Source of the DNA: a virus
Length of the DNA stretch: 64,000 nucleotides
Virus genome (UHGV): UHGV-1579991
Reading direction: 5' to 3' (one strand)
The notes under the pieces are model-generated. The model made no database searches. It was not told the origin of the DNA and saw only the letters and a list, made by a program, of their open reading frames with translations. The translations under genes were made by a program, and so were the position numbers. This document shows, piece by piece, positions 15,866 to 64,000 of this stretch (positions are counted from its first letter, which is position 1; the number at the start of each line of letters is the position of its first letter).

Positions 15866-18800
15866 TCAAAAGCCTCGATTCATCAGTTCATCAGCAAGTC
15901 GTTCAAGTTCAGTAGCAGCTTTTTGTCGCTTGGCTTCTCTTTCTGCTTCAACATCTGCTTTGCTTACTGGCGATTCCAAGTCTTTTGCAGGTGCATCTTC
16001 AATAACAGTCAAATTGTTGTCATCAAACTTGTTGTCAATGTCAACTCGTTTGAATGATATGATGCCTGATGACACCTGAGCTTCTACTTGTTGTTTGTCA
16101 AATACAAGACTACTAATCGTTGATTGCAGTTTTGTAGATGCCAGCAATCGTTCTGTGTTATCTGCAAAAATGTCATCAGTAAACAATACATGCAGCATTT
16201 GAGCAATCGAATCACGACTTCTGCTGTAGCCACTGTCAAATGCAGGCAACTGCTTAATTGCATAGATGTCGCCATCATGTACAGTAATTGCATTGAACAT
16301 GCGTCTTGCAATTGATGCCACCGAATCAAGTACATCTGGTGATTGCGGCGTGTAGCCTCGTGAATCAAAGTATATGAGTGCAGAGTTCTTAACAATTTGA
16401 TCGACTACTTCTGATGCAATTGAGACTGCATCTTTGCTGTTATTGAAGACATCATTTAGCATATATGACACAATCTTGATGTTCGACTCATGCATTGTGC
16501 CACTTGAGCCAGCATCAAATATTGACACTGCGTCTTTGATTGATTTGAGTCTTGCAAGTCGATACATGTCTTTGTTATCAATGACATACATATCGATAGT
16601 CTTCATAATTGTGTCGAACAAGTAATGATGCGATAGTGTTCGCAATGCATGTCGCCAATCATCAAATACTCGTCTGTCTTCTACAAGATATGCAAGCTTG
16701 CCATTTTTCTTGACAAGTTCAAATCTGTCTGATTCTTGAATTTGCTCTGCCGGCAAATTCATGATGACTTCGAATGTAGCCTGATTGACAAATGATGCAA
16801 ACATTTTGCCAATCTTGCTGTTCTTTTCTTGACGGTACTCTGCTCGAGCTTCTTTTGCAGCATTGAGAACTTGAGCAATCATCATGTCATCTGCAACAAC
16901 ATCTTGCACGACTTTGCATTCATAGCCATACGATGACAATGTGTTCTGAATGATGACAAGCTGAGTAGCCCATTGTCGCCATTTCTGCTCAAACATATTG
17001 AGCTTATACGCAGTCAAGTGAATCTTGATTTCACCTGTGTACGGGTCACGATAAAAGTACGGTGCATTGAATGCCCATTCAAAGAAATCAAAGAGACTTC
17101 TTGAGTCATTGCGCTTTGTCTGCATTTGCAAAATGTCCCAGAATGTCAACTTTTCAACATTTGTTAATGTCAAGTCAAGCTCATCATATGCAGTGATGTT
17201 TCGTGGGTCACCATTCGCTTTTGTCATACTGAAATACACATATGACTGAATGGATATTTTGCGAAGTCGTGAGTTGAACTGCTCAATTTCTTGACCAGTG
17301 AATGCCTCGTCATAAATGACATCGAATTCGTAGCTGTCATTGATATCAATGCCAACTGACAAGTAATTTGTGCAGAATAGCAGTTCAATATCACCGATTG
17401 TGCCAGATTCATTGATTGATTGAACAAAGTCATGCATTGCATTGTCACGCTTGTAGTACTTGACTTTTGGATTTCTGCCAAGCATCATTCGAACTGCACC
17501 AACAATTGCATGAGTAAATGCATCGCCTTTGTTTGTTGGGAACAGAATTCGTTTGCCTGCTTTAATTGCTGTTGAGATATGTGATGCAAGTTTTGTAATC
17601 TTGTCGCCGTCATGTTTGCAGCAGACAAATCTGACACCTTTGTTGTAATTAAGTGGCTTATCGCAGAATACGACAGTATCAAAATGACAGAACATGTGTT
17701 CAGCTACAGGTGTGCCTGTCATCAAAATGACTTTTGTCTGTAACTTTGTTAAGTTGTCAATCACATTTGCAGGTACAACATCACGATATGCAGACATTGT
17801 CAACAAGTGCGACTCGTCGACGACGACGTAGTCATATAAAATTGACACTTCCTCTGGGTCAGCTAATGTAAATTTATCGAATGTCAAAGCTACATTGACA
17901 TGCTTAGACAATTCAAGACCACGCTGACCAAATGAGCAATACATGCCAAGGTCTGACATCTCAATCTTTGATTGCAAGATTGATGTGTATGGTTCAATCA
18001 GCATGACTCGTTTTCCATCACGAGTAAGCTGTTTGATGAATTCTGTCTTGCCTGAACCTGGTCGTGCAATCAAATAGTTGATGCCAGTTACAAATGCTTC
18101 TTCAAGTTCATGCTTGTATGTCGACAAATACTCATTTTCTGCAAGTTTGAAGACATGCGTATGTCGAAGTTCAAAGTCTTTTTGCTGTGCAACTTTCGAC
18201 ATAATGTATTGACTGATTGCGTCTTCTGTATTGTGTTCAGCAATCAGTTCATTGACAGTTACAGACGACTTGTTAGCAAACTTGAATTTGAAGCCATGTT
18301 TTTCACGAAGTTCTTTGACAGATGACCATACACATGGACAAGTGCCTGCTGCATTACGTTCAACTGCAGACCTGAATGAGTTTGCCCAGCTGTTATGCTC
18401 TGCATTGAACTTTGGATTGCCCGAACACATTTGCAAGAACATTTGCAACACATGTTGATATTGTGCAGAAGTCGTTGATTGCAAATCATATAAAAATGCT
18501 AAAGTATATGCAAGTCTGTATCTACCAGTGTTATCGTAGTTTTGTGGAGTGATTGTGAGCATTGTGCCCTCTTCAATCATTGTGATGTCGTCACGTTGAG
18601 TAAAGACTTGCTCGCCGTCAGTCATTGCAGTCATATGAGACTTCGGTGCATAATCAAAACGACCACGAAGTCTATCAAACATTGTCTTCAGTTTGTCGAT
18701 GCAGAATTTTGCATCAACTGAAGCATAAATGCTAACATCAAACTCTGGTTGCTCAATGAATTGCGCGTTTTGATTGATGATGACATCTTTATCTCGTGCA

Positions 18801-22100: not shown

Positions 22101-23511
22101 GCTCTCTTAGCTTTTCAATGAGCGCTTCAACATCTGCTCGATAAGTATCGCGATTGTCGGAACGTTCAACTATTTTGTACTCTTTCTTAAGTTCTACAAT
22201 CTTTGCTTTAAGCTTTTTCTGTTCATCTTGAGTCAATCTGCTGACTGCAATTTCAAGAACTTTGTGATTGATTGAATGCTCATCAAGAATAGACTTGACT
22301 TGCTTAGTCGTCATTTTGTGCAGCACAATGACTTCGTCAAGCACAAGTTGAATGAACTTCATGATGTCTTCATACCACTGAATTGTAGTACGAATGTCTT
22401 CAAGTCGTTTTTGCTTGCGAATTTCATAGAATTGCAAACGCCACTCGACAAATCGCATAATGAGTGAACCGACTGTTTTGTATCGACGAATCTTGTCATC
22501 GAAGTCAATGACAGTCAAGTTGTCACGTTCAATTCTGCAGAACATTGCAAGAGTCCAGTATAATGAATCTTTTGCAAGCAACTCAGCAAGTTTTGCTTTC
22601 GTAAACTTTATCTCATACAGAATCTTGTCTTTGTGAGAGTAATTTGTCCATGCTTCAATAATGTCACGGTCAAGCAGCATATTGAGATGGTTTTCATAGC
22701 CATCGAATGTGTTGTTGTATGGGATTGCAGTTACATTGACTGTAGTGTCATCAACAACTTCCATTCGACCATGATGCTCATATACACCATTGACAAGTCG
22801 CCATTCTCCTTGCAAGCCTTTGACATATGGCGTAATTTTACGTTCAGAAATATCTTCGCCATCAAGAGCATCAATAACAGCATTGCAAACTTCAATTGGA
22901 TTACGATTGATAATTGTGCTTGAGTAGCCAACCGCAATGCCCATAATTGAATTTAGCAAAATTGTGGGCACAATTGGCAGATAAAATTGCGGCTCAACTT
23001 CAATGCCCTCTTGCCAACGATTTGTAAGCAACTCATTGTCTTTCATAAGCAACTCAAATGCATCTGACAATCGAACAAAGATGTATCGAGGCGCACCTGC
23101 ATATGGGCTATAGAACGTACCAAACTGGCCTTCACCAATAAAATATGGAATGTTCTGCTTAAAGTCCTGAGACATGATTGTGATATTGCCCTCAAGACTT
23201 GTCTGGCCGTGTTCGTAACCACCCTCTGCTTTTACATAGCCTGCAAATGCACCTACAGTTTGCTTAACGCCACCTTTAAGACGCTTGAGTGCAACATACA
23301 TGATTTTTCGTGCAGTAGGCTTAAAGCCATCACGAACATCAGGTATCGCACGTTCAAATGCTGTGTGTAATGCGTACTCTTTATATCGAGTATTCAAAAA
23401 TTCCGCAATGGAAATTTGAATATCTTGTTCTGTCAATGGTTCTGTGTAAACTTCTTGTTTTCGTCGTGCCATTGTAGCTAATTTGATTTTATTTCCTATA
23501 TTATTGTACAA
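22051..23511 (-). CDS. DNA topoisomerase II, DNA-breakage/reunion subunit (GyrA/gp52-like)
   Basis: 486 aa; GyrA/ParC-type N-terminus (FLNTRYKEYALHTAFERAIPDVRDGFKPTARKIMYVA). Confidence 0.75.
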   Translation of the reverse strand: MYNNIGNKIKLATMARRKQEVYTEPLTEQDIQISIAEFLNTRYKEYALHTAFERAIPDVRDGFKPTARKIMYVALKRLKGGVKQTVGAFAGYVKAEGGYEHGQTSLEGNITIMSQDFKQNIPYFIGEGQFGTFYSPYAGAPRYIFVRLSDAFELLMKDNELLTNRWQEGIEVEPQFYLPIVPTILLNSIMGIAVGYSSTIINRNPIEVCNAVIDALDGEDISERKITPYVKGLQGEWRLVNGVYEHHGRMEVVDDTTVNVTAIPYNNTFDGYENHLNMLLDRDIIEAWTNYSHKDKILYEIKFTKAKLAELLAKDSLYWTLAMFCRIERDNLTVIDFDDKIRRYKTVGSLIMRFVEWRLQFYEIRKQKRLEDIRTTIQWYEDIMKFIQLVLDEVIVLHKMTTKQVKSILDEHSINHKVLEIAVSRLTQDEQKKLKAKIVELKKEYKIVERSDNRDTYRADVEALIEKLREHGYEEAEVRHVTIERD

Positions 23512-23708
23512 CGATGTTGTTAGATTTGCATCATTTGAATATCTTCAAATCTGCAAAGCTGCGCAGTAGACTGAATACGGAATACTAAGAATACACCGCA
23601 ATCAGTGACACGTTTAACAAGTGCATCTTCATTTGTAGGCGTATACAGTACAACATCCCAAGGTTCGAGTTGTTTTGCTTCTTCTGCTGTCATATTTGTA
23701 GTAATGTT

Positions 23709-24677
23709 TTAGTCGAGCCAATGCAGCATATTCTCGTCATCAAAACGAGATTCAAGCTCTGCTGTCGTAATGAATGCAAGTTTGTTCAGCATATACTGCT
23801 GCAATTCACGTTTGCGAATTGATTCAAATCTGACAAATGTTTCAGGCACTTCAAGCTCACCATCAGCATCATATGTTGCAACAGAAGTGTCAACATTGAT
23901 GTTGTGAATCTTTTCGCATGACACTCTGTACTTTGTCAAGTCAAAGCCTGGTTTGCCATCATTACGAGGCAACAAACTCCACATAGCAAAGTTTTCTACA
24001 GCTTCAGCAACAAATGCAAGAGCTTCATGCATGTCAACACTGTAGTCTTCTATAAGATTTGCGTATAGTGTAGCTACAATGTTTTGATGTGTCGCAAGGT
24101 CAAGCTTATTGCTAATTGCATGCTCAAAAATGTCTTTGAAGTTCTCATACATAGTAAAGTTCTTCAAGACAAGTCGCTGTAATGCTGTGCGGTCTTCAAG
24201 AGCTGCATATGCAGTGTCATCATGCATTGCAGAAGCCGCTGCTTGCTGAGCATTCAGTACAACTGATACGTCATGAATGACAAATTTTGAGTCAATCAGC
24301 ACTGACACTGCAATAAACGGTGCAACAGACTTTGAGTCTTTTTGAGCAAAGTCAATCTCAATGTGAAATGAATTGCCTTGTCGCGATTGCACCGAATGAT
24401 AAATTTCATAGTCATTGACGTACAGCTTAAAGTGCTGCTTAATTGCGTCATTGACTGCATTGATGCCCGCATCATAAATGTTGCCAATCACTTCAAGTGC
24501 ACGAGTGTTAAGTGTATGTGCAAGAAATGCTACATTTTGATAGTTGACGAGTTTGTGAGACAAATCAGTCGTGTTGTTAAGTTGTCTCATCAAATCATGC
24601 AGTGCATCATATGACAGTTTGATGTCATCTAACGTGTTGCACTCATGTATTGCGTTAATTTGCTGTGTCAGAGTCAT
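23709..24677 (-). CDS. hypothetical protein
   Basis: 322 aa ORF. Confidence 0.5.
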   Translation of the reverse strand: MTLTQQINAIHECNTLDDIKLSYDALHDLMRQLNNTTDLSHKLVNYQNVAFLAHTLNTRALEVIGNIYDAGINAVNDAIKQHFKLYVNDYEIYHSVQSRQGNSFHIEIDFAQKDSKSVAPFIAVSVLIDSKFVIHDVSVVLNAQQAAASAMHDDTAYAALEDRTALQRLVLKNFTMYENFKDIFEHAISNKLDLATHQNIVATLYANLIEDYSVDMHEALAFVAEAVENFAMWSLLPRNDGKPGFDLTKYRVSCEKIHNINVDTSVATYDADGELEVPETFVRFESIRKRELQQYMLNKLAFITTAELESRFDDENMLHWLD

Positions 24678-24921
24678 TTTGTGTATGTTCTTGATTTGCT
24701 TGTTCTGCTAAGTTGTTTATGAATGCTTTGAGCAATTCAATGATTGTTGTTAGTAACTGAATTTGAAACAATACAATGCTAAACATGACAATTGCTACAA
24801 TGCAAATTGAAATGAAGAGCATATTGATGTCAAATTTGTTTGCTATCAATGTTTGCAGCCAAGTTATGACTGCAAACATTGAAATCAGTATGAATACTTT
24901 GTGCTGTGATAACGATTTCAT
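24655..24921 (-). CDS. hypothetical small membrane protein
   Basis: 88 aa; two hydrophobic segments (VFILISMFAVITWL, ICIVAIVMFSIVLF). Confidence 0.4.
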   Translation of the reverse strand: MKSLSQHKVFILISMFAVITWLQTLIANKFDINMLFISICIVAIVMFSIVLFQIQLLTTIIELLKAFINNLAEQANQEHTQNDSDTAN

Positions 24922-25637
24922 TTGAAATGTGCGGATGTCGGATTAGTGTCGGTCATTCTAATGTGCCAGTCATAAATGAACCATCTTGCGAGGTCATCAT
25001 TTTTGATGTTATGAGTTTTGACATACTGTTCAGGGCCTAATGCCTCGCCGGTTTCAGGATTGACTGCGAAGTGGGATTCATCTACATTAGTAGACTTGTT
25101 TTTGATGTTTGAGATTCGGAGCTTTGTATGCAGTTCAGTGCCATCAGATTGCAGTGTTTTGACATAGAATGCAGTTTTTGTCGTTGCTTCATTGTCAAGC
25201 CATACACCGAACTTAACTCCGTGCGATTTCCAGTATGCATTGTCAGCATCCCTGATTGCTTTGAAGTTCGGGTCATCAAGCCAAGGCTTGAAGACATATA
25301 CAGCATGTTGTTCCTTTCGAGTGATTTCGCCTTTGCCTTCACAAACTGTATGATACAGCCGCATTGCAGTTTCTTCATCGAAATAATAAGTCAGATTGCC
25401 TGGCTTATCGAATGTGCCAAACTGCTGACCATCGATTACGAGAATGAATGTGTAACGTGAATCCTTGAAGAACTCTACTCGTACAGGCTGTTTGTGCTGT
25501 CTGCTGTTAAGCAGTCTGTCAATTGTAATGACTGCCCAGTTGGTGCCTGTCTTTGTTTTGTTGCCGTGAAACAGTTCAGGATATGAAACTGTGTAAGGCA
25601 ATGCTTTGTACTTCCAATGTTCATTAAAACTTTTCAT
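24918..25637 (-). CDS. hypothetical protein
   Basis: 239 aa ORF; two copies of the upstream motif at 25700-25830. Confidence 0.5.
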   Translation of the reverse strand: MKSFNEHWKYKALPYTVSYPELFHGNKTKTGTNWAVITIDRLLNSRQHKQPVRVEFFKDSRYTFILVIDGQQFGTFDKPGNLTYYFDEETAMRLYHTVCEGKGEITRKEQHAVYVFKPWLDDPNFKAIRDADNAYWKSHGVKFGVWLDNEATTKTAFYVKTLQSDGTELHTKLRISNIKNKSTNVDESHFAVNPETGEALGPEQYVKTHNIKNDDLARWFIYDWHIRMTDTNPTSAHFK

Positions 25638-25900
25638 ATGTAGAGATTTTTGTAGTTTGTATCAATTGCATTCTATATCAATTGCATCTTGTATCAAATA
25701 CATTATATTGATATATGATAATTGTACTACAAAAATCCCAAATTTGCACACTTTGATAATCAAAAGTGCAAACAAAATTCAAAGTTATATTGTACATCAT
25801 AAAGTGCAAATTTGCACTTTATGATGCTGCAAAATGTTTGCATAAAAAAATAAGCAGCTTAGATTGCTAAGCTGCTGTCATTGTATGTATGCAGTCACTG

Positions 25901-26437
25901 TCATTTGTAGTGTTCAGTTATGTATGCAGAGCATAGCAAAACAACTGATACACAAATGACAATGTATGTTGGCGTAATCAGTGTCACATTGAATAACAAT
26001 GCAGTCAATGCGCATACTGTTACTGATATGAGTGTTGAAATGAATGCAGCATATGCACTAAACTTGCTTTTTAACAAACGTTCGATGATATATGTTGTCG
26101 CAACAGACAGTAAGACTACACATGCAAATAACAACAGCCAAGTTGAGTTTGACGTTGTCGGCTCTTCAATAAACTGCAATGTTGCTGATGGCACTTCAAT
26201 ATTGTTTGATGCTTGTAATGTGCCACTTGCAGCATCTGCGTACATCACAGTTAAGTAGTGTCGTTGAATTTCTGCTGCGTCTACTTTATAGATTCTATGC
26301 CATGCAACATCTGATATGATGTATGTTGCAGCCATAAATGCAGCAATGCATAGCATATAAGAGCCAAACTTTGCAATCGGTTTCATGCAAATATATTTTT
26401 GTTTGTATATGTACATAAAAGAGCAAGTTCTCCACAT
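25901..26437 (-). CDS. hypothetical multi-pass membrane protein
   Basis: 178 aa with several hydrophobic stretches. Confidence 0.45.
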   Translation of the reverse strand: MWRTCSFMYIYKQKYICMKPIAKFGSYMLCIAAFMAATYIISDVAWHRIYKVDAAEIQRHYLTVMYADAASGTLQASNNIEVPSATLQFIEEPTTSNSTWLLLFACVVLLSVATTYIIERLLKSKFSAYAAFISTLISVTVCALTALLFNVTLITPTYIVICVSVVLLCSAYITEHYK

Positions 26438-26764
26438 TGAGAACTTGCTCAGCTGACCTGTTACCAGGTGAAAGCGTGGTGCAGCACCTTGTGCTGCAAT
26501 GGCTATGCTGCCATCGCCATAACGGGCTGAGCATTGCCCAGCATCATTACACGACCAGCTGCATTAAGCGTACGCTTTGCTTTGTTGAAAAATTTGCCAG
26601 TTATCTGGTATCTGCACATCTATTCAAGCGACCTACTATGCAATCAAATGCCTGTCGAGCCCAATGTTTGAGCAGTTGTTTGTCAGATGCTCAGCTGACT
26701 GCAGTCTTTCTGAGTGTATCAAGTTCAGCGATTCTGCATCTTTGCTAAATGGCAATGGTTCAGG

Positions 26765-26800
26765 TGGACTCGCCGAGAATCGAACTCGGGTCTTACATAG
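26765..26800 (-). other. tRNA-like fragment (T-arm plus acceptor 3' strand only)
   Basis: Minus-strand read CCGAG-TTCGATT-CTCGG-CGAGTCC-A is a canonical T-arm plus acceptor 3' strand, but I could not find a matching 5' acceptor strand, D-arm or anticodon arm before the next tRNA. Confidence 0.3.
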
Positions 26801-26845
26801 CGCATCCTTGACTTGGTCCTGTAAACAGGGTTGTCAACATGCATT

Positions 26846-26916
26846 GCAATACGACAGGACTCGAACCTGCGACCTCGGATTGGACGTCCGCGCTCTTACC
26901 GCTGAGCTACGTATTC
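26846..26916 (-). tRNA. tRNA, anticodon uncertain (possibly Gly-UCC)
   Basis: Minus strand: acceptor GAATACG/CGTATTG (G1-G72 mismatch), D-arm GCTC-AGCGGTAA-GAGC, T-arm GCAGG-TTCGAGT-CCTGT; anticodon stem irregular (4 bp), loop CGTCCAA. Confidence 0.5.
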
Positions 26917-27009
26917 TTATCAATTGACTGCACTGCAATGCAATCAATCGTGCCAATGATATTTGACACGCATAATTGCAGTTATGCGTAACAATTCAAA
27001 TGTCATTTG

Positions 27010-27082
27010 AGCCAACTGCAGGAATCGAACCTGTAACCTGCTGAGTACAAATCAGCTGCTCTACCAATTGAGCTAAGTTGGC
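27010..27082 (-). tRNA. tRNA-Thr (anticodon UGU)
   Basis: Minus strand: acceptor GCCAACT/AGTTGGC, D-arm GCTC-AATTGGTA-GAGC, anticodon stem GCTGA/TCAGC with loop TTTGTAC, T-loop TTCGATT. Confidence 0.75.
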
Positions 27083-27164
27083 ATAAAGTCGTTGGGCCAT
27101 TGCAACCCAAACCTATCATCTTTGCCTAACCAAAGATGCAAGCGCTCTCTTACACCACGACTTG

Positions 27165-27235
27165 TAGCCGAACTTGGAGTCGAACCAAGCTTTCGAGAAT
27201 GAAAATCTCGCGTCCTAACCGATAGACGAAACGGC
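27165..27235 (-). tRNA. tRNA-Glu (anticodon UUC), non-canonical acceptor stem
   Basis: Minus strand: D-arm GTCT-ATCGGTTA-GGAC, anticodon stem CGAGA/TCTCG loop TTTTCAT, T-arm CTTGG-TTCGACT-CCAAG; acceptor GGCCGTT/TTCGGCT has two U-U mismatches at its base. Confidence 0.5.
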
Positions 27236-27419
27236 CAAGAGCAGTTCAAGTCTGCAGCATTGAACTGCGGAAACAATGCCTGTACGGGCAACCAATTGTG
27301 CAGATACAGCGACATTGCAAAATCACACCGAACCAAGTTTGTGGCTCTTCTGTCTCATAAAAACAAGTAATCATTACACTTGGCACCAATGATTTTGATG
27401 TAAAAATCGGTGTGTTACG

Positions 27420-27504
27420 CGGAGAGTAAGGGATTCGAACCCCTGGTACGTTGCCGTACAGTGGTTTTCAAGACCACCGCCATCGACCGCTCGGCCAACT
27501 CTCC
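27420..27504 (-). tRNA. tRNA-Ser (anticodon UGA), type II
   Basis: Minus strand: acceptor GGAGAGT/ACTCTCC, anticodon stem GTGGT/ACCAC loop CTTGAAA, 16-nt variable arm, T-arm AGGGG-TTCGAAT-CCCTT. Confidence 0.75.
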
Positions 27505-27697
27505 ATAAAACATTGCATAAGCATTCTTATCTCTTGATGAGGCCAAGTAGCTAATTTGGCAAGTTTGTTATATCTATCGTGACTGTTGCAGTTTGTTGTC
27601 ACTCAATACACAAAACTTTCGAACATTCATTGACAACACTGCAATATCGCTTTTTAAGCTCAGCCATCAATGTATTTATGCAATGTATAACAATTCG

Positions 27698-27779
27698 TAG
27701 CCAAACCGGGACTTGAACCCAGACTCCTAATGGAACAACATTTTGAGTGTTGCGTGTCTACCAATTCCACCATTTGGCC
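27698..27779 (-). tRNA. tRNA-Leu (anticodon CAA), type II
   Basis: Minus strand: acceptor GGCCAAA/TTTGGCT, anticodon stem CAACA/TGTTG loop CTCAAAA, 13-nt variable arm, T-arm CTGGG-TTCAAGT-CCCGG. Confidence 0.7.
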
Positions 27780-27876
27780 ATTTGCAAATGCAAGCTGTTT
27801 CACAACTGTTTGCATTTGCATTTGCATTGTTTAACACACTAAAATATGATTCATCTAATCAAAAACCAGAGAATTG

Positions 27877-27949
27877 TCGAGAATGTGCGATTTGAACGCC
27901 AATTATACGTCCCAAACGTATCGTGTTACCGGATTACACTACATTCTCG
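27877..27949 (-). tRNA. tRNA-Pro (anticodon UGG)
   Basis: Minus strand: acceptor CGAGAAT/ATTCTCG, anticodon stem ATACG/CGTAT loop TTTGGGA, T-loop TTCAAAT with a weak 3-bp T-stem. Confidence 0.6.
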
Positions 27950-27956
27950 TTAATTG

Positions 27957-28027
27957 TTGAACTGTCTGGACTCGAACCAGAAATATATCATCCAAAGTGA
28001 TATGTGTTACCATTACACCACAGCTCA
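27957..28027 (-). tRNA. tRNA-Gln (anticodon UUG)
   Basis: Minus strand: acceptor TGAGCTG/CAGTTCA (one G-U), D-arm GTG-TAATGGTAA-CAC, anticodon stem TATCA/TGATA loop CTTTGGA, T-arm TCTGG-TTCGAGT-CCAGA. Confidence 0.7.
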
Positions 28028-28132
28028 GTATATAATGTATGCTTGTGTTATTATGTATATTTGTTAGTAATTATATGAATAATATACTACATTTATTTAT
28101 GATTTGCACCATATACTGCAACTTTGTATCAC

Positions 28133-28495
28133 TTAATTGCACAATGTGACTCTGTCTTTAAGTTTATGCATGTGTAGCACGTTTGCAATATCTACTGGCA
28201 ACTTATATGACCCATCAGATATTGCAAATGCTGCAAGTTGCATAATCAAATCTGCATTGTCTGTAAGAACTTCTGCAAATTTACTGGCATCACAACATGC
28301 GTAATACTTGCGAATTGTTGCTGCTTGCTTTTGTATGATGACACGCACATATACAGTTTGAGCAATGACTGCGCGTCGTAAATCAACTTTGACAATACAC
28401 ATAGTGTCATCGTCGTCTTTCACGACATGTCGCCATACGCCGTCATTGCAAATGCCATGCTGTGCTATAAGTGTTTTAGTGATATCAGACATCAT
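28133..28495 (-). CDS. hypothetical protein
   Basis: 120 aa ORF immediately downstream (in transcript sense) of the tRNA array. Confidence 0.45.
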   Translation of the reverse strand: MMSDITKTLIAQHGICNDGVWRHVVKDDDDTMCIVKVDLRRAVIAQTVYVRVIIQKQAATIRKYYACCDASKFAEVLTDNADLIMQLAAFAISDGSYKLPVDIANVLHMHKLKDRVTLCN

Positions 28496-28540
28496 CTCTA
28501 CTCAAATATAATTTTTTGATAATAAAATTCCATACAAATA

Positions 28541-29038
28541 TCATTCGATGTTACCAGATAATATCCGAATGGCATCCAATGCATTTTCTCGTATCAAGCC
28601 AAACTTACCTATAACTTGAACAAAATGTTTGTCATTTTCAAATGTTGAGTCATCAAGAATGACATATTGTTTGATGTTATGTTTCTCAACAAGCGCAGGC
28701 ACTGCAGCAAATCTGTCATGAAAGCCCTCAGCATAAATTGATGGCAACAAATAGCCTGGCATATTGCGCTTAAGCCACATTATCTTGCAGTCATCAAGAA
28801 TAGCCCAACTGCTTATTAAGCATATTGCACCAACATCTGACATTTGACAAATGTATCTCAACCAGCCAACACAACGTTCATCGAACAATTGGCCAAACTC
28901 ATCTTTTGACTGCACATCCATGTTTGCACGATGCTTTGACATGTGCAACATATTGAGATTATCTTGGCTATTCAGAACACCATCAATGTCCAAGAATATC
29001 ACTTTGTCAGGCCAAATCACTTTGTTTGTTGTGTTCAT
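28541..29038 (-). CDS. HAD-superfamily hydrolase-like protein
   Basis: 165 aa; HAD motif I FLDIDGVLNS near the N-terminus and a C-terminal ILDDS acidic motif. Confidence 0.5.
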   Translation of the reverse strand: MNTTNKVIWPDKVIFLDIDGVLNSQDNLNMLHMSKHRANMDVQSKDEFGQLFDERCVGWLRYICQMSDVGAICLISSWAILDDCKIMWLKRNMPGYLLPSIYAEGFHDRFAAVPALVEKHNIKQYVILDDSTFENDKHFVQVIGKFGLIRENALDAIRILSGNIE

Positions 29039-29906
29039 GACGATGTTTTGTTATGTCTTCTACTGTTAGCTTGAGTTCAGGCCAAGTGTCAAACACTTTC
29101 TGCAGCTGCTCATCTGACTTGTTAAGAAGCTTCTTGTATATTGTGTGTATTGATTGATAATGAGCATCAAGAGCTTTGCCGATGTGCACAAACGGTATTT
29201 GCAAATGCACAATGCAATGCAGTATGAATGCTTGTTTACGAAGTCTTTGAACACCGCCATCCAAACGCCAAATTTGTAGTACACCTGCATTCAGTGCATC
29301 TTCATACAATGACTGTACAACTTGTATGTTATGTTCTGCTGTAGCACGTTTGTTATCGCGCTTTGCTGCTGCAAGCGACCTACGTGAATCTGGCATTGCT
29401 CTTGTGTGCTTAGTAGTCTGTACTGTGACATCATTGATATGACTATGAATGTTCTCAACATCAATGAATTCAGTACGATGTTCTTTTGCTGCAGTTTTTC
29501 GTCTGCCAAGTATATGTTTATCATACACTTGTTCTTGCAGTCGTTCAGACAACTCTGCTTGCAAATCTGCAACTTGTTTGCGTAATACAACATTCTGCGC
29601 AGATTGCTGTGCTGCAATATCTGCAACAGACATAATGTCAAAGACTGTGTTGAGCTGCAGCCATACATTATATGCGCATTCTACAATATGACGTTTGGCT
29701 GCATCAATTGTGGCAAATTGCTCACGAGTCTTAAATGCATCAAGCATTGTGCTTATGACATACACATGCTCACGTTGAATTATGGTGACATTGATGCTGC
29801 CAATGGTTGCAGTCCATTGCATTGGTGCAGATAACTGCACATTGACAGATGCATCGATAGACTTGCGCAATGAATCAAACATGGTTGCTTGGGGGTGGGT
29901 GGTCAT
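29007..29906 (-). CDS. hypothetical protein
   Basis: 299 aa ORF. Confidence 0.5.
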   Translation of the reverse strand: MTTHPQATMFDSLRKSIDASVNVQLSAPMQWTATIGSINVTIIQREHVYVISTMLDAFKTREQFATIDAAKRHIVECAYNVWLQLNTVFDIMSVADIAAQQSAQNVVLRKQVADLQAELSERLQEQVYDKHILGRRKTAAKEHRTEFIDVENIHSHINDVTVQTTKHTRAMPDSRRSLAAAKRDNKRATAEHNIQVVQSLYEDALNAGVLQIWRLDGGVQRLRKQAFILHCIVHLQIPFVHIGKALDAHYQSIHTIYKKLLNKSDEQLQKVFDTWPELKLTVEDITKHRHEHNKQSDLA

Positions 29907-30415
29907 TATAACATTACGAGTTGTTGACGTGCCTGCATCTGTTCAATGCAATCATCGCCTATTATGCACAAATACTGAGGCAGCTTATCAAGTGAAATGA
30001 GCGTGCAAATGTATGGGTCAAAGAACTTATTTGTTGATGCAAGCAAATCGTAAAATAGACATGCTTGTTCTGCGTCAAGTCGAGTAACAACAAGTCTATT
30101 GTATCCAGGCGCATCAAACCCGCATTTGAGCAAATGTCTACCGACATGTATGTCATTGCCCATTGTCAATGTGGCTGCAAGCATGCTGTCGCATTCTACT
30201 GCAGGTTCTGAGTAATGCCAGTTAATTGATGCATATGCAGTTAGCACATACATGCCAGCAGTCACATCCCATTCAGACTCTGCAATAATTGCCCATGTGC
30301 GCTTGCCATTATGTTCAATTTCGACAAAGTCACCTCTTGTGAATGAATCTACAAGCTTTGCAGTTATCAGATATTGCAGTTGTTCTGTGCTATTGTATTT
30401 GATGCAAGTTTTCAT
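29906..30415 (-). CDS. hypothetical protein
   Basis: 169 aa ORF. Confidence 0.45.
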   Translation of the reverse strand: MKTCIKYNSTEQLQYLITAKLVDSFTRGDFVEIEHNGKRTWAIIAESEWDVTAGMYVLTAYASINWHYSEPAVECDSMLAATLTMGNDIHVGRHLLKCGFDAPGYNRLVVTRLDAEQACLFYDLLASTNKFFDPYICTLISLDKLPQYLCIIGDDCIEQMQARQQLVML

Positions 30416-30710
30416 AATCTGTCAATATAAAACATCTAACAAGTTTTGAAACAAGTCGTCTATGACCCGTCTCAACTCGTATCATATGCTTGGTGAATAG
30501 TGGACCTGCTGCTGTAACACAATGTCTGTCAAGGGCATTTAGTACTTTGTTCATTGCAATCAATGGGTGCAAATGACTATTCGGCCAGCATTCTTCTGCA
30601 ATGTCTGTCAGAATGTCATCACCATATGACACAACTGAACATTTGTCTGCAATAAGATGCTTCTTAGCAATCTCTGCAACTTTTTGTGTAGAACAACGCA
30701 TAACAATCAA
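30390..30710 (-). CDS. hypothetical protein
   Basis: 106 aa ORF overlapping both neighbours by a few nt. Confidence 0.4.
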   Translation of the reverse strand: MIVMRCSTQKVAEIAKKHLIADKCSVVSYGDDILTDIAEECWPNSHLHPLIAMNKVLNALDRHCVTAAGPLFTKHMIRVETGHRRLVSKLVRCFILTDYENLHQIQ

Positions 30711-39452: not shown

Positions 39453-42400
39453 TCAATTACATGCTGAATGTCCGCAGTTGGTGCATCGAACACAGCCGTC
39501 AAACTTGACCATGTCACCACCGCATTCAGGACACTTTGCATACATCTTTGAGCCATCTTGAATGTGTAGTTTCAATGCGCGACCAATTGCTTTGCAGAAT
39601 GTGCCAACAGATGCAAAGCTTTTTGCAGTTTGGTCGACAATTTCACCAAGGTCGATGCCATTGCGAAGCATCGTTGAGTACAGTCGAGTAATTGTTTGCT
39701 GCTCATCTGAACCAAGACGTTCTGAGATATTGTCATAGTGTTGCAAGAATGACAAATTATCACCAAGCTTGTAGTGCTTCTTATCAGTCTTTGTGATTGT
39801 CGTTTGTTCAATGCCTTGCAACTTGTCAAATTCGTCTTTGTCAAGTTCAAATGCAAAGATTTCATAGGGTCGACCATCATCACAACCTACAAGAATACAC
39901 CACTTACGCTTATACACTGATACACAATACACTGCAGCAGGCAATACAGGTTTTCGTTTTGAGCGATGACCAGACTGCAAGACATGCGACTTATCCTTAG
40001 ACTGCTTATCATCTTTTACGAGAACACCTGCACGTGAGCCATCTCGATAAATTGTGCAACCCTTGCAGCCAGATTTCCATGCAGTCAGATAAATTTCACG
40101 AACAAGCTCTTTTGTTGCAGAGTTTGGAATATTGACTGTTACAGAAATTGATGAGTCAATGTACTTTTGCAACGCGCCTTGCAGTTTAACCTTGCCAATC
40201 CAGTCAACATCTTCAGTAGTTGCCTTATAGTATGGTGATTGAACAAGCAATTCATCAATGACTGCTTGCGAAGCATTTGACAACCAAGCTTTGATACGAG
40301 ACATTTCTGCTTCTGACCATTCAATGCCAGTATCTTTGACAAGGGTGAATTTGTCATCACCAAGCTGCACTCGTTTGCAAATCCACTGCATCAATGGGTA
40401 GTGAACTACAGCGTATTCAATGAACTTGTCACCAGTAGTCTCATCAATGAAGTTGATGTCTGCTTCATTATCAACTGCAGTAGGCTTTCGACGACGTTTG
40501 TGCAGTGGCATAAAAACAGGTTCAATGCCAGAAGTTGTCTGAGTCATCAAAGCTGTGGTGCCAGTTGGCGCAATTGTTGTTGTGTTGATGTTTCGACGAC
40601 CAAATTGTTGATAAGTTGTGATGTGCTCATCATCAATCAGTTCAGATAACATACGCTGAATGAACTTTGACTGCACATCTGTGTCATAGTCGAATATTGC
40701 AAATGAGCCACGAATCTCTGCCAAGTCAATTGACGCTTCATAAGTCGCCTTTACAAGCCATTGTTGCATAGTGACTGCGAAGTCAATTGACTCTTGTGAA
40801 CCATAGCGCAAGCCAAGCATTGCCATTGCATCGCCAAGTGCAAGAAAGCCCATGCCATATCGACGAGTATTTGTCAATTTGTCATAGACTTTATGCCACA
40901 AGTCAAGCTCAGTTTTCTTAATGTCAAATGATTCTTTGTCTGATTCAACCTTTGCAATGATTCGTTGAACTGCTTCAATTTCAAGCTGCACAAGGTCATC
41001 CATGATGACTGCACAGTCATATGTATCTTTGTAGAATGCTTCAAAGTCAAATGATGCATCAGCAGTCCAAGGATTAAGCACATATGCAGTCAAATTGCGA
41101 TGTGATAAAATGCAGCTTGCATATGCTGCAAGAGGCTGTTCACCGCACTGCCTGTTGTTTACAAATACTTGCATATGTCTGTCATTTGTATCATTGACAG
41201 CGTCAAATGACCCTACAAAAAAGTTGTGATAATCATCTACAGTGCCATTATACACATCTTCTACACCATCAAGTTCAACAGTGTGTACCCTATGATTGTA
41301 GTAATCTGCAAACTGCTTAAACTTTCTGTATGACGCATGAATAGCAGCGTCAACATTGTTAGATTTGCATTCATTTGCAAATTCTTCATAATTTGGTCGT
41401 TTGCCAAGTTTTTGCTTTGCTGCAGTATATACAAGCACTTGTTCTTTAGACCATTTTGCTTGCTGAGCTGCGTGGCCGCATTCGGCAGAACAATATGCAA
41501 CTTCTCTATAAAACCAGTGCGCCCAAAATTCAGAGCCGCAATGTTCGCAAATACGTTTAACATACACTTGTTTGTCAACAAATTTAGTGTCATAGCCCAT
41601 ATTGCGAACTTTAATTGCTGTTGCTATGCATCTGCTATCAATGCCAACTAAATCAGGATATTTAACATTAGCGCGCGTTGCACAATGACTTAAAAATGCA
41701 TCAATAGAGCCAAATGTTTCTACTAATTTATTGTACCTGTAGCCAGACCATGCAACAGTATTATTGCCTGGCGCATAGCGCATATAGTATTCTAATTCTT
41801 TGCGACTAAGGCCTCTTCCAACTTTTGCAGTGCATTGCGTAACATAGTCTACAATTGATTGCACAGTTGTATCAATATCATATCTGCCATTACGTTCACC
41901 AGAAGTAGATGCACTCATTTTAGCAGAATACTGTGCAAAACGTTCTGCATTTGCTTTAATTTTGTATATTGGATTGTTAGTGCCTCTACGTTCAAGTGCA
42001 TGTAATGCATCATGCTCTTTTTTGCTTAGTACTTGTAAGTTATTTGGGTCATTGTTTAATGAATTGCCATCGATATGATGCACTACTGTGTGTGTAGCAT
42101 CAAACTGTTCAGCATGACAGTATTCTGCTATTAAACGATGCTCAAACTTATATACACCATTATTCAACACTGCATAATATGGTGCAGATTTGCTATTTGT
42201 TTGATAGCTAAGCACTTCATCAAATGAACATTGTTGTCTTGCAATAATTGCTAAGCTATCACCATGCTGTAATTGTCGTGCTTCTTTGTATGTGCCATCT
42301 GTTAACTTAAACTTGTGATTACCTGTGCAACGAATAACATCACCAGAATCAAGTGTAACTTTGTATATTTGCACATTTGAGCCTGTTTTGCGTGGATGCC

Positions 42401-43439
42401 GCATTTTGCGTACAACTACATTATTGTTGTCATCATAGCAATACACATTAACATCATCGCCAATATCTGCAAGTTCACGTATTGTCATTGTTTGTCTGCC
42501 ATCAGCAAGCATAACTTTAGTGCTGCCAACAATGCATGGATTTGTTGAGCGCTCTTCATACATTTTACCGTATGCTTTCGAGTTCGACTCTTCCATAATG
42601 CGGTCCCAAAAGAACACGCCGGGTTCTGCAGATGCCCATACATTGTCAACAATTTTGTCAAATAATGCTTTTGCATCTGATGTCTTATGCAGCTCTTGGC
42701 CATCAGAGCCACGCCAAATATGTTCAAACTGCTGTTCTGCAAGCACTGCACGCATAAATGCATCAGTAAGCTTGATGGAAATGTTTGCACCTGTGATTTT
42801 TGTCAAGTCTTTTTTTGCGTCAATGAACTTATCTGCATCAGGATGCTCAATTGACAATGACAACATCAATGCGCCACGCCTGCCATTTTGTGCAACTTCT
42901 TTTGTCGATGTTGAAAAGCGTTCCATAAATGACACGACACCAGACGTCGTAATAGCACTGTTATGTACTTCTACGCCTTCTGGGCGAATATGCGACAAAT
43001 CATGGCCAACACCACCACGACGTTTCATCAACTGAACTTGCTCTTCATCTGTTTTGAAGATGCCGCCATATGAATCTGCATCATTGCCTATTACATAGCA
43101 ATTTGACATTGATGTGTAACCGCCAAGACCGATACCAGCCATTGGAGAACCACCAAGTACAAATCGCTTAAATGGCTCAAGCAAATATGCAAGTCGCTCT
43201 TTTGACAATACACGTTTGCCTGTCTGTTCTTCAAATTGTGATTCTATACGGTCAAATTCATTGACCCAGCGCTCATGCATATCAGACAATGAGTGTTCAT
43301 ACAAATTGTCTTTGTCATGATGCAAGTATTTTGACATGCATATGTCAGCAGCCATTGAGTCGCCCGTAAATTCATGCGTCAGTGTAGTGTGCACTTCAGC
43401 ATATTCAGGCGACCCAATTTGAATGGGACGTTTTGTCAT
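39453..43439 (-). CDS. nrdJ: ribonucleotide reductase, class II (NrdJ)-like, intein-containing precursor
   Basis: Track ORF 39453..43499; likely start at ATG 43439 (MTKRPIQIG). Exteins reconstitute the RNR active-site motif NP-CGEQPL...AYASC; C-terminal Cys-rich zinc-ribbon-like tail. Class assignment is tentative. Confidence 0.7.
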   Translation of the reverse strand: MTKRPIQIGSPEYAEVHTTLTHEFTGDSMAADICMSKYLHHDKDNLYEHSLSDMHERWVNEFDRIESQFEEQTGKRVLSKERLAYLLEPFKRFVLGGSPMAGIGLGGYTSMSNCYVIGNDADSYGGIFKTDEEQVQLMKRRGGVGHDLSHIRPEGVEVHNSAITTSGVVSFMERFSTSTKEVAQNGRRGALMLSLSIEHPDADKFIDAKKDLTKITGANISIKLTDAFMRAVLAEQQFEHIWRGSDGQELHKTSDAKALFDKIVDNVWASAEPGVFFWDRIMEESNSKAYGKMYEERSTNPCIVGSTKVMLADGRQTMTIRELADIGDDVNVYCYDDNNNVVVRKMRHPRKTGSNVQIYKVTLDSGDVIRCTGNHKFKLTDGTYKEARQLQHGDSLAIIARQQCSFDEVLSYQTNSKSAPYYAVLNNGVYKFEHRLIAEYCHAEQFDATHTVVHHIDGNSLNNDPNNLQVLSKKEHDALHALERRGTNNPIYKIKANAERFAQYSAKMSASTSGERNGRYDIDTTVQSIVDYVTQCTAKVGRGLSRKELEYYMRYAPGNNTVAWSGYRYNKLVETFGSIDAFLSHCATRANVKYPDLVGIDSRCIATAIKVRNMGYDTKFVDKQVYVKRICEHCGSEFWAHWFYREVAYCSAECGHAAQQAKWSKEQVLVYTAAKQKLGKRPNYEEFANECKSNNVDAAIHASYRKFKQFADYYNHRVHTVELDGVEDVYNGTVDDYHNFFVGSFDAVNDTNDRHMQVFVNNRQCGEQPLAAYASCILSHRNLTAYVLNPWTADASFDFEAFYKDTYDCAVIMDDLVQLEIEAVQRIIAKVESDKESFDIKKTELDLWHKVYDKLTNTRRYGMGFLALGDAMAMLGLRYGSQESIDFAVTMQQWLVKATYEASIDLAEIRGSFAIFDYDTDVQSKFIQRMLSELIDDEHITTYQQFGRRNINTTTIAPTGTTALMTQTTSGIEPVFMPLHKRRRKPTAVDNEADINFIDETTGDKFIEYAVVHYPLMQWICKRVQLGDDKFTLVKDTGIEWSEAEMSRIKAWLSNASQAVIDELLVQSPYYKATTEDVDWIGKVKLQGALQKYIDSSISVTVNIPNSATKELVREIYLTAWKSGCKGCTIYRDGSRAGVLVKDDKQSKDKSHVLQSGHRSKRKPVLPAAVYCVSVYKRKWCILVGCDDGRPYEIFAFELDKDEFDKLQGIEQTTITKTDKKHYKLGDNLSFLQHYDNISERLGSDEQQTITRLYSTMLRNGIDLGEIVDQTAKSFASVGTFCKAIGRALKLHIQDGSKMYAKCPECGGDMVKFDGCVRCTNCGHSACN
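41148..42536 (-). mobile_element. intein (Hint domain plus HNH homing-endonuclease domain) inside the RNR gene
   Basis: In-frame 463-aa insertion from Cys at 42536 (CIVGSTKVMLADG) to ...VFVNNRQ at 41148, followed by the +1 Cys of CGEQPL. Contains HNH motif HHIDGNSLNNDPNNLQVLSKKEHDALH and intein block-F-like VYNGTVDDYHNFFVG. Confidence 0.75.
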
Positions 43440-43504
43440 TGTAACAGTGCATTTAAGTGTTTTAACAGTTTTATGTATAAATTGTACAACAATGGGCAAA
43501 ATTT

Positions 43505-63704: not shown

Positions 63705-64000
63705 TTATGCGTCATCGTACAGTGAATGACTTATCGTCATCTTCTGTAGTAGTTGGGTCATCAATTACATCGTGGCCAATACCTGACATGGGCTCTGGCT
63801 CAGGTTCCGGTTCTGGTTCCGGTTCTGGTTCCGGTTCTGGTTCCGGTTCTGGTTCCGGTTCTGGTTCCGGTTCTGGCTTTGGCTCCGGCTTAGGCTCTGG
63901 CTTAGGCTCTGGCTCAGGTTCCGGCTCAGGTTCCGGTTCTGGTTCCGGTTCTGGTTCCGGTTCTGGTTCCGGTTCTGGTTCCGGTTCTGGTTCCGGTTCT
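63705..64000 (-). CDS. hypothetical protein with (Glu-Pro)n / (Lys-Pro)n dipeptide-repeat region, partial (N-terminus beyond window)
   Basis: Minus-strand frame is open from the window edge to stop TGA at 63707..63705; ggttccggttct repeats translate as EPEPEP...EPKPEPKP, ending ...[29 protein letters not shown]. Confidence 0.5.

Follow-up and report, generated by a model that had tools for sequence, protein, structure and literature searches.

What is encoded by the GC-rich, structured segment that lies beside the transfer RNA (tRNA) array of the virus genome UHGV-1579991? Within the 64,000-nucleotide (nt) stretch of this genome that was analysed (referred to below as the window), positions 26446-26701 had been flagged in an original prediction, which offered two readings: a small structured RNA co-transcribed with the tRNAs, or a small inserted element with duplicated ends. 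Reading of both strands across 25000-28500 indicates that the segment is very probably the interior of a circularly permuted, phage-borne ssrA gene, which encodes a two-piece transfer-messenger RNA (tmRNA) and forms the last gene of the tRNA operon. The whole gene, as delimited by ARAGORN, Rfam and sequence reading, runs from 26845 to 26417 on the minus strand, and the flagged segment comprises its intervening segment and most of its coding piece. Two-piece tmRNAs are a known kind of ribosome-rescue RNA, present here in a divergent form and in a phage lineage without an earlier report; the segment is not a new class of RNA, nor is it an inserted element. The first of the two original readings holds in that an RNA gene on the tRNA strand lies between the last tRNA and the operon terminator, but it missed the minus-strand orientation, the known RNA class and the fact that an adjacent tRNA-like fragment is the first part of the gene. 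Its function as a tmRNA is inferred from sequence.

Identification and architecture of the gene

ARAGORN called a permuted tmRNA at 26854 to 26412 on the minus strand with the tag peptide GKFFNKAKRTLNAAGRVMMLGNAQPVMAMAA, and made the identical call in a sister contig, IMGVR_UViG_3300045988_152288 (L001, also L004). A standard tmRNA was recognised by the same program once both pieces had been re-joined in one-piece order. Furthermore, a sensitive Rfam scan of 26200-27000 produced a sub-threshold match to RF04321 (tmRNA_permuted) at 26823 to 26503 on the minus strand, covering the entire model (1-213 of 213) with 30.7 bits and an E value of 2.6e-4. The order of parts is acceptor piece, a 100-nt intervening segment and coding piece, all on one strand. 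Across these 100 nt, GGGCUCG pairs at 7 of 7 positions with CGAGUCC to form an acceptor stem, in which G3·U70 is present together with the discriminator A73. The G3·U70 pair is the identity element of alanyl-tRNA synthetase (AlaRS). The T arm reads GAC-CCGAG-UUCGAUU-CUCGG with a canonical 7-nt T-loop and, together with a D-loop analogue (ACAGGCAUUUGAU) that has no D stem, aligns to the RF04321 consensus. Cofolding of both pieces yields a tRNA-like domain and a long P2 stack with helices of 8-9, 5 and 8 base pairs (bp).

The acceptor piece (26763-26845, minus strand), supported by ARAGORN, the RF04321 alignment, the two-piece cofold and the compensatory changes described below, begins 1 nt past tRNA-Gly. 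From its 5' end, it contains the outer P2 3' strand UGCAUGUU (26843-26836), a hairpin CCUGU-UU-ACAGG (26829-26818), the P2 strands UCAAG (26811-26807) and GCUAUGUA (26801-26794), the T arm (CCGAG-UUCGAUU-CUCGG, 26789-26773), the 3' acceptor strand (26772-26766), the discriminator A (26765) and CC (26764-26763); the full CCA is not in the DNA. The tRNA-like fragment noticed originally beside the segment corresponds to this piece and is not a separate element, but part of the same gene. The intervening segment (26663-26762, minus strand), defined by sequence and 99% identical to that of L004, carries a hairpin of GAGCA (26692-26688) and UGCUC (26674-26670), which ends 7 nt before G1 and covaries in a second relative. 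The coding piece (26417-26662, minus strand; ARAGORN, RF04321, sequence reading and cofold) starts with the 5' acceptor strand (26662-26656) and the D-loop analogue (26655-26643), followed by the P2 5' strands UGCAUAGU (26642-26635), CUUGA (26628-26624) and GAUGUGCA (26620-26613), a hairpin CCAG-AUAA-CUGG (26608-26597) and the tag frame. Behind the tag are an 8-bp hairpin UGCAGCAC-AAG-GUGCUGCA (26480-26498), which is invariant across strains, and a small hairpin CCUG-GUAA-CAGG (26457-26468), whose loop is GCAA in both relatives. The two hairpins reported originally, at 26480-26498 and at 26499-26514 (atggc/gccat), are thus both present.

Two further pairings were considered and rejected. A candidate pseudoknot pairing UUGAA/UUCAA, spotted by eye, receives no support from the second relative (L005, introduced below). 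A helix between the 3' tail of the coding piece (CCUGGUAACAGG) and the 5' region of the acceptor piece (CCUGUUUACAGG) was discarded likewise, as only the latter is swapped for a different local hairpin in L005.

Conservation and compensatory change among relatives

Among 50,697 phage genomes, blastn in distant mode with 26350-26900 as query returned no match. When IMG/VR, JGI metagenomes and GTDB were scanned with patterns, the element turned up in only two IMG/VR contigs, which derive from one sample and are ~93-96% identical to the window, namely contig 152288 and IMGVR_UViG_3300045988_149023 (L005, also referred to as variant B). In IMG/VR, the exact T-arm/acceptor 25-mer was found in L001 alone, and among 21 matches to the degenerate tRNA-like-domain pattern TGGGNNNGACAGGNATTTGA the real ones were the two known relatives only. 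Topoisomerase II, used as an anchor in the same database, retrieved relatives of at most 35% identity, none of which has a permuted tmRNA, and homologues of a neighbouring 239-amino-acid (aa) protein fell into two clusters whose contigs end before reaching the element. Independent short-read assemblies that carry the 239-aa gene (L088 and L090-L092) break 100-450 nt upstream of it; the break zone is the AT-rich, repeat-containing intergenic region 25640-25900, where strain heterogeneity or repeats may fragment assemblies. Exact-protein look-ups recovered the window's own haplotype only, identical in independent assemblies (ENA and Logan) that stem from at least 5 samples, ERZ27260843 and ERR1136811 among them, which argues against misassembly. 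All eight related contigs carry the segment.

In contig 152288, tRNA-like domain, P2 and tag (240 nt together) contain 0 differences, whereas the flanking ORFs (open reading frames) differ by 4-8%. At ~5% divergence, ~12 differences would be expected in 240 nt, and their absence is read as purifying selection on the RNA.

L005 provides the complementary comparison. Its flanks are ~95% identical to those of the window, and near-identity extends over the tag frame, the 3' part and the bulk of the intervening segment, but both halves of the tRNA-like domain have been replaced. The acceptor stem is GGGGGUG/CACCUCC (followed by A) instead of GGGCUCG/CGAGUCC, the T stem CCGCC/GGCGG instead of CCGAG/CUCGG, the outer P2 helix GAUGUGUA/UGCAUGUC instead of GAUGUGCA/UGCAUGUU, and the intervening hairpin GGACA/UGUCC instead of GAGCA/UGCUC (two double changes). 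Taken together, the four helices show 7 double compensatory and 2 single compatible changes, with 0 broken pairs, and G1-C72, G2-C71 and G3·U70 are untouched. Helix pairs were tabulated by script, since MAFFT misaligns the T arm by one base. RF04321 still matches L005, with 24.9 bits, an E value of 0.004 and a one-base deletion in the T-loop.

Tag reading frame and resume codon

The tag frame (26503-26598, minus strand) is defined by the ARAGORN coding part (257-352), by its context and by retention of the frame in L005. It opens with the resume codon GGC (26598-26596), has no start codon, and comprises 31 codons encoding GKFFNKAKRTLNAAGRVMMLGNAQPVMAMAA before the stop codon UAG (26505-26503), which sits at the loop-stem junction of the hairpin AUGGC-AGCAUA-GCCAU (26514-26499). 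The peptide ends in PVMAMAA, that is, with a hydrophobic stretch and Ala-Ala. The resume point of tmRNAs is set by positions -6 to +1 (PMC3985003), and all five one-piece tmRNAs that were compared (L011, L046, L059, L060 and L072) have (A/U)UAA(A/G)(U/C) before the resume codon. The context of GGC 26598, AUAACU, was taken as fitting this pattern and is the same in L005. The Rfam alignment implies GCA 26580-26578 as resume codon instead, which is less likely, as its context AACAAA misfits the pattern; the 31-residue tag called by ARAGORN is therefore the best reading.

In L005, the tag frame contains a single substitution, the synonymous AAU to AAC. Furthermore, a 2-nt deletion in this strain destroys an AUG-started ORF of 38 aa and places an in-frame UAG right before ...PITGKFFNK..., so that a conserved frame without a start codon remains, as would be predicted of a trans-translated tag but not of an ordinary small gene. 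On the plus strand, the sole long ORF (26437-26748, 103 aa) is cut by a stop codon in L005, in line with the original view that the segment contains no credible ORF.

A scan of IMG/VR, JGI metagenomes and GTDB species genomes with the codon-degenerate tag-end pattern CCNGTNATGGCNATGGCNGCNTAR identified no further relatives. It retrieved unrelated one-piece tmRNAs ending in PVMAMAA (from a Eubacteriaceae metagenome-assembled genome, an Acidimicrobiia and unassigned contigs), and the tag end is thus no guide to the host. One of the one-piece tmRNAs, L046 (Ga0255060_10047879, 322-664), has an unusually long tag of 30 residues, ANNIVSRIQNKVRDLRNMFAQSRPVMAMAA, with the same final heptapeptide as in the window. 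It is located between tRNA-Leu and tRNA-Ala on an AT-rich contig of 1.8 kb, for which a phage origin is also possible.

Proposed maturation and role

The following steps are proposed by analogy with two-piece tmRNAs; the anatomy of the sequence, its conservation and the compensatory changes constitute the observed part. A single precursor would extend from upstream of tRNA-Gln (~28030-28130) to the terminator at 26450-26417. RNase P would cut 5' of each tRNA and 5' of G26662, and a 3' nuclease such as tRNase Z would cut after tRNA-Gly and after A26765. As the 3' end of tRNA-Gly abuts the acceptor piece, processing at this end would release the 5' terminus of the acceptor piece at ~26845. The CCA end would be completed by the host enzyme and the 100-nt intervening segment discarded. 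The two pieces (~83 nt for the acceptor and ~246 nt for the coding piece) could then remain joined by an acceptor stem of 7 bp plus ~21 bp of stacked P2 helices to form a tRNA-Ala-like domain, which AlaRS would charge via G3·U70. With host SmpB and EF-Tu, the putative tmRNA would enter stalled ribosomes, resume translation at GGC 26598 and add Ala plus the degradation tag GKFFNKAKRTLNAAGRVMMLGNAQPVMAMAA. The likely benefit to the phage is ribosome recycling while mRNAs are being cut during infection.

Evaluation of alternative explanations

Several observations weigh against the identification as a two-piece tmRNA. The match to RF04321 stays below the gathering threshold of 47 both in the window (30.7 bits) and in L005 (24.9 bits); according to its authors, this model retrieves all 11,946 permuted sequences of their database (PMC11915505). 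The alignment contains large insertions of ~70 nt (intervening loop) and ~40 nt (tag), which may partly account for the low score. At gathering thresholds, Rfam reported tRNAs alone and no tmRNA in the region. The class-specific models also remain below gathering (alpha with 12.8 bits against 50, beta with 11.9 bits against 84) and align to the T-arm/acceptor part only, and cyano_tmRNA is absent among the matches listed at E <= 10 in the sensitive scan, a list that omits two overlapping matches of the same clan with lower scores. Pseudoknots before (PK1) and after (PK2) the tag have been called typical of two-piece tmRNA coding pieces (PMC3985003), and inspection by eye and minimum-free-energy folding detected only hairpins at these places (26608-26597 before the tag, 26498-26480 and 26468-26457 after it). 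Both strands are more stable than shuffled sequences when folded (z -3.5 and -3.9), so thermodynamics cannot pick the strand. Rfam scanning and both-strand folding, which the original prediction had named as checks, thus return a sub-threshold match over a full model and stable structure on either strand. In addition, variant B has a 6-nt T-loop (UUCGAU) and escapes ARAGORN unless the threshold is relaxed, in which case it is reported as a low-scoring 'p' call. The covariation rests on a single comparison, as there are only two structural variants. Finally, a tblastn search with an E. coli SmpB query found no SmpB homologue in the 64-kb window.

The same low scores, the lack of recognisable pseudoknots and the unusual length of the tag could be explained by a decayed tmRNA relic carried as a pseudogene in the tRNA operon, as could variant B, which combines its abnormal T-loop with not even a partial CCA. 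We regard decay as unlikely, given 0 substitutions in 240 nt where flanking genes differ by 4-8%, the compensatory nature of all changed stem pairs in variant B with retention of G3·U70, and a sole, synonymous tag-frame substitution that leaves tag frame and resume context preserved. Fragments of the 3' end of ssrA are frequent in temperate phages and genomic islands (PMC9004378; PMC11915505), and the tRNA-like fragment by itself consists of T arm and acceptor 3' strand only. It might therefore be an attachment site of attP type, copied from the 3' end of a host tmRNA or tRNA gene and serving integration, with the GC-rich neighbour being an unrelated structured spacer or leader. This is very improbable: a matching 5' acceptor strand, the D-loop analogue, P2 partners and the tag frame follow just downstream and covary with the fragment in variant B, the genome is T4-like with a Gp23-type capsid and a T4-type terminase, and none of the 10 scanned ORFs flanking the array matched an integrase family in PHROGs. 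An equally low probability is assigned to a different novel small RNA or cis-regulatory structure whose tmRNA likeness arose by chance, making the ARAGORN call a false positive. Such a chance likeness would fit the sub-threshold Rfam match and the about equal stability of the strands, and 7-nt complements within 300 nt are in themselves no rarity; it would, however, require that the canonical T-loop, G1-G2-G3·U70, A73 and the GAC before the T stem all coincide with a start-less open frame in a typical resume context ending in Ala-Ala-stop, at the end of a tRNA operon, and that the compensatory changes fall exactly within the predicted stems.

The remaining alternative, namely a small mobile element inserted between 12-bp target-site duplications, or else a protein gene that is frameshifted or mis-assembled, is the least probable of all. 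An exact 12-mer, TGCTCAGCTGAC, does occur twice, 242 nt apart, at 26446-26457 and at 26688-26699 (the second copy had been placed at 26690-26701 in the original prediction), and the 103-aa plus-strand ORF spans the segment. The copies do not, however, mark the ends of the gene, and each of them provides the 5' side of a hairpin. The upstream copy lies inside the intervening segment, where its GAGCA contributes the 5' side of the covarying hairpin; the downstream copy, written TGCTCAGCTGAC on the plus strand and GUCAGCUGAGCA on the RNA strand, extends into the terminator stem, whose 5' strand begins with its GAGCA. In L005, the upstream copy is GUCAGCUGGACA, with 10 of 12 positions kept, and has changed along with its pairing partner (GAGCA/UGCUC to GGACA/UGUCC), which indicates that selection keeps the hairpin and not the repeat. 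Moreover, the window contains 16 non-tandem direct repeats of at least 12 nt within 300 nt, compared to 1.25 in composition-preserving shuffles. Given these frequent local repeats and the imperfect copy in L005, the 12-mer is not a special boundary, but typical of this genome, though above naive chance. None of the related contigs has an empty site, as an insertion with duplicated ends would predict, and the broken ORF in L005 and the identity of independent assemblies speak against a longer protein gene in a corrected assembly. A processing stem formed between the two palindromic copies (UCAGCUGA) was also considered and rejected, as the pairing does not extend beyond 8 bp. Elsewhere in the window, tandem 12-nt units (GGTTCCGGTTCT, GGCTCAGGTTCC and similar) occupy 63791-63990 up to the window end.

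Operon, terminator and neighbouring gene

The permuted tmRNA gene directly follows seven same-strand tRNA genes identified by ARAGORN (26846-28027), the last of which encodes tRNA-Gly(UCC) (26846-26916, minus strand; Rfam tRNA 44.1 bits; 100% identity in all strains). CCA is encoded by 0 of these 7 phage tRNAs. An intrinsic terminator of the tRNA-tmRNA operon is located at 26450-26417 on the minus strand and consists of a 12-bp stem GAGCAAGUUCUC/GAGAACUUGCUC (26450-26421), a 6-nt loop and UUUU. Its loop (26433-26438) is exactly reverse-complemented between strains, with AAUGUG in the window and CACAUU in both L001 and L005 on an unaltered 12-bp stem; this difference looks like a hairpin-loop inversion.

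The GC content is 0.47 at 26400-26699 and 0.25-0.41 at 25600-26399, confirming that the segment is richer in GC than the adjoining sequence. The tRNA array has values of 0.42-0.50, however, and the enrichment is therefore a trait of the whole RNA-gene block rather than of this segment alone. The adjacent gene for a membrane protein (25901-26437) had been assigned a start at 26437, an ATG that falls inside the terminator stem. Public gene calls give a 161-aa form from 26386 (MKPIAKF...), and ATG 26386 is most likely the correct start.

Replacement of single RNA genes among strains

Between the window, L004 and L005, which are ~95% identical, single RNA genes of the array (26846-28027) are swapped at exact boundaries, while the spacers are ~97-98% identical. 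The L005 version of tRNA-Ser(UGA) (27419-27504) is divergent and non-canonical, with the T-loop AUCGACA, and is not called by ARAGORN; its anticodon loop is kept and its stem changes are compensatory. At tRNA-Pro(UGG) (27876-27949), L004 has an unrelated tRNA-Pro(UGG) sequence, and the acceptor and anticodon stems of the window's tRNA-Gln (27956-28027) match neither L004 nor L005. No difference separates the three in tRNA-Gly, tRNA-Glu and tRNA-Leu (100% identity). The tRNA-like domain of the tmRNA shows the same strain-swap pattern as the tRNAs. These swaps may result from patchy recombination or from diversifying selection acting on phage tRNA-like RNAs. Cassette exchange with a fixed tag and fixed spacers, if it takes place, would suggest diversifying selection, for example through escape from a host tRNA-targeting nuclease or adaptation to the AlaRS, SmpB or RNase P of different hosts. 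Replacement of the tRNA-like domain and of tRNAs at gene boundaries could be used for studying selection on phage translation RNAs.

Phage affiliation and likely host

Genes for a Gp23-type capsid protein, a T4-type terminase, topoisomerase II subunits and an NAD-dependent ligase are present in the window, and related contigs (152288, 149023 and ERZ27260843 k119_20060) are 175-181 kb in length; the phage is a T4-like myovirus. In addition, its ribonucleotide reductase large subunit (39453-43499) is split by an intein with an HNH endonuclease domain (Pfam Ribonuc_red_lgC, Intein_splicing and HNH_3). The capsid and topoisomerase proteins are closest (31-37% identity) to those of Chryseobacterium, Tenacibaculum, Flavobacterium and Prevotella phages and of Sphingomonas phage PAU. 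A Shine-Dalgarno-like motif precedes 2 of 60 ORFs, which equals the background (4.5%). Missing Shine-Dalgarno sites are typical of Bacteroidota and their phages. Both the lack of these sites and the capsid and topoisomerase kinship suggest a host outside the Alphaproteobacteria and Cyanobacteria, and we infer a member of the Bacteroidota as the probable host. Across the whole window, start codons are preceded by an A-rich stretch at approximately -14 to -11, which, together with the scarcity of Shine-Dalgarno motifs, is suggestive of translation initiation of the Bacteroidota type.

The two topoisomerase II genes (23511-30707) are ~7 kb apart and enclose the tRNA/tmRNA operon as well as several lineage-specific ORFs. 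Chryseobacterium phage MA9V-1 (L096), the closest cultured relative, has the two genes ~1 kb apart without RNA genes in between, which suggests that the tRNA/tmRNA module was inserted in the lineage of the window. The topoisomerase intergenic region looks like a hotspot for inserted cargo.

Comparison with known tmRNAs

Two-piece tmRNAs have been described from Alphaproteobacteria, some Betaproteobacteria, Cyanobacteria and mitochondria (PMC3985003; PMC11915505), whereas Bacteroidota tmRNAs comprise 24,380 standard and 48 permuted instances (PMC11915505 Table S2). The bacterial two-piece tmRNAs (RF01849, RF01850 and RF01851, merged in RF04321) share with the window element the order of acceptor piece, intervening segment and coding piece on one strand, the tRNA-Ala-like domain assembled in trans (G3·U70, A73 and canonical T-loop), the P2 connector helix, a start-less tag frame ending in Ala-Ala and presumed maturation by tRNA-processing enzymes (PMC3985003). 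The window element differs from them in its score below RF04321 gathering, its 12-13 bits to the alpha and beta models and its lack of recognisable PK1 and PK2, as well as in its 100-nt conserved intervening segment with a covarying hairpin, its 31-residue tag, its Gly (GGC) resume codon and its location at the end of a tRNA operon.

Among phages, 53 of 133 unique tmRNAs were suggested by ARAGORN to be two-piece, and 50 of these 53 are from marine or aquatic phages (PMC9004378). Like the window, the marine myophages with two-piece tmRNAs (Methylophilales phage Melnitz, pelagimyophages and cyanophages) are T4-like myoviruses with a complete permuted ssrA, for which support or redirection of the hijacked translation apparatus has been proposed as a role, a role that the window element may share (PMC9004378). 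In contrast to them, the window element has no detectable DNA similarity to the 50,697 deposited phage genomes, the sensitive scan of 26200-27000 revealed no glutamine riboswitch or other Rfam element, and the capsid and topoisomerase kinship is with Bacteroidota phages and PAU, whereas the marine phages carry the two-piece form that their hosts use as well. A permuted tmRNA in a Bacteroidota-looking phage would stand out by the missing fit to class models, by its Gly resume codon and 31-residue tag, and by the absence of recognisable pseudoknots. For annotation, it follows that the segment should not be listed as a protein gene, that the membrane-protein gene most likely starts at 26386 and that the tmRNA gene lies under the curated Rfam thresholds.

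A distant relative with a topoisomerase II of 32% identity, L011 (IMGVR_UViG_3300026546_000001), encodes a one-piece tmRNA (18430-18776) with the tag GKETFAFAA. Its tmRNA gene is ~6.5 kb from the topoisomerase II large-subunit gene, and that of the window is likewise a few kb away. The L011 resume context AUAAAU|GGCAAA resembles AUAACU|GGCAAA in the window, and the motif UAAGCAUGUAG before its T arm resembles the first bases of the acceptor piece in the window, AAUGCAUGUUG. Unlike the window element, the L011 gene has an unpermuted order and a 9-residue tag, and the remaining sequence is not alignable. The likeness may be taken as a lead towards independent permutation, not as proof. It is tentatively conceivable, though rather doubtful in this combined form, that the window represents a further independent permuted tmRNA lineage, which arose in a Bacteroidota-infecting phage clade from a one-piece, Gly-resume tmRNA like that of L011 and which exchanges its tRNA-like domain as a cassette. 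If functional, the gene would add a new lineage to a rare type of gene rearrangement and would demonstrate that phages are able to provide a two-piece rescue RNA where the host's own is one-piece.

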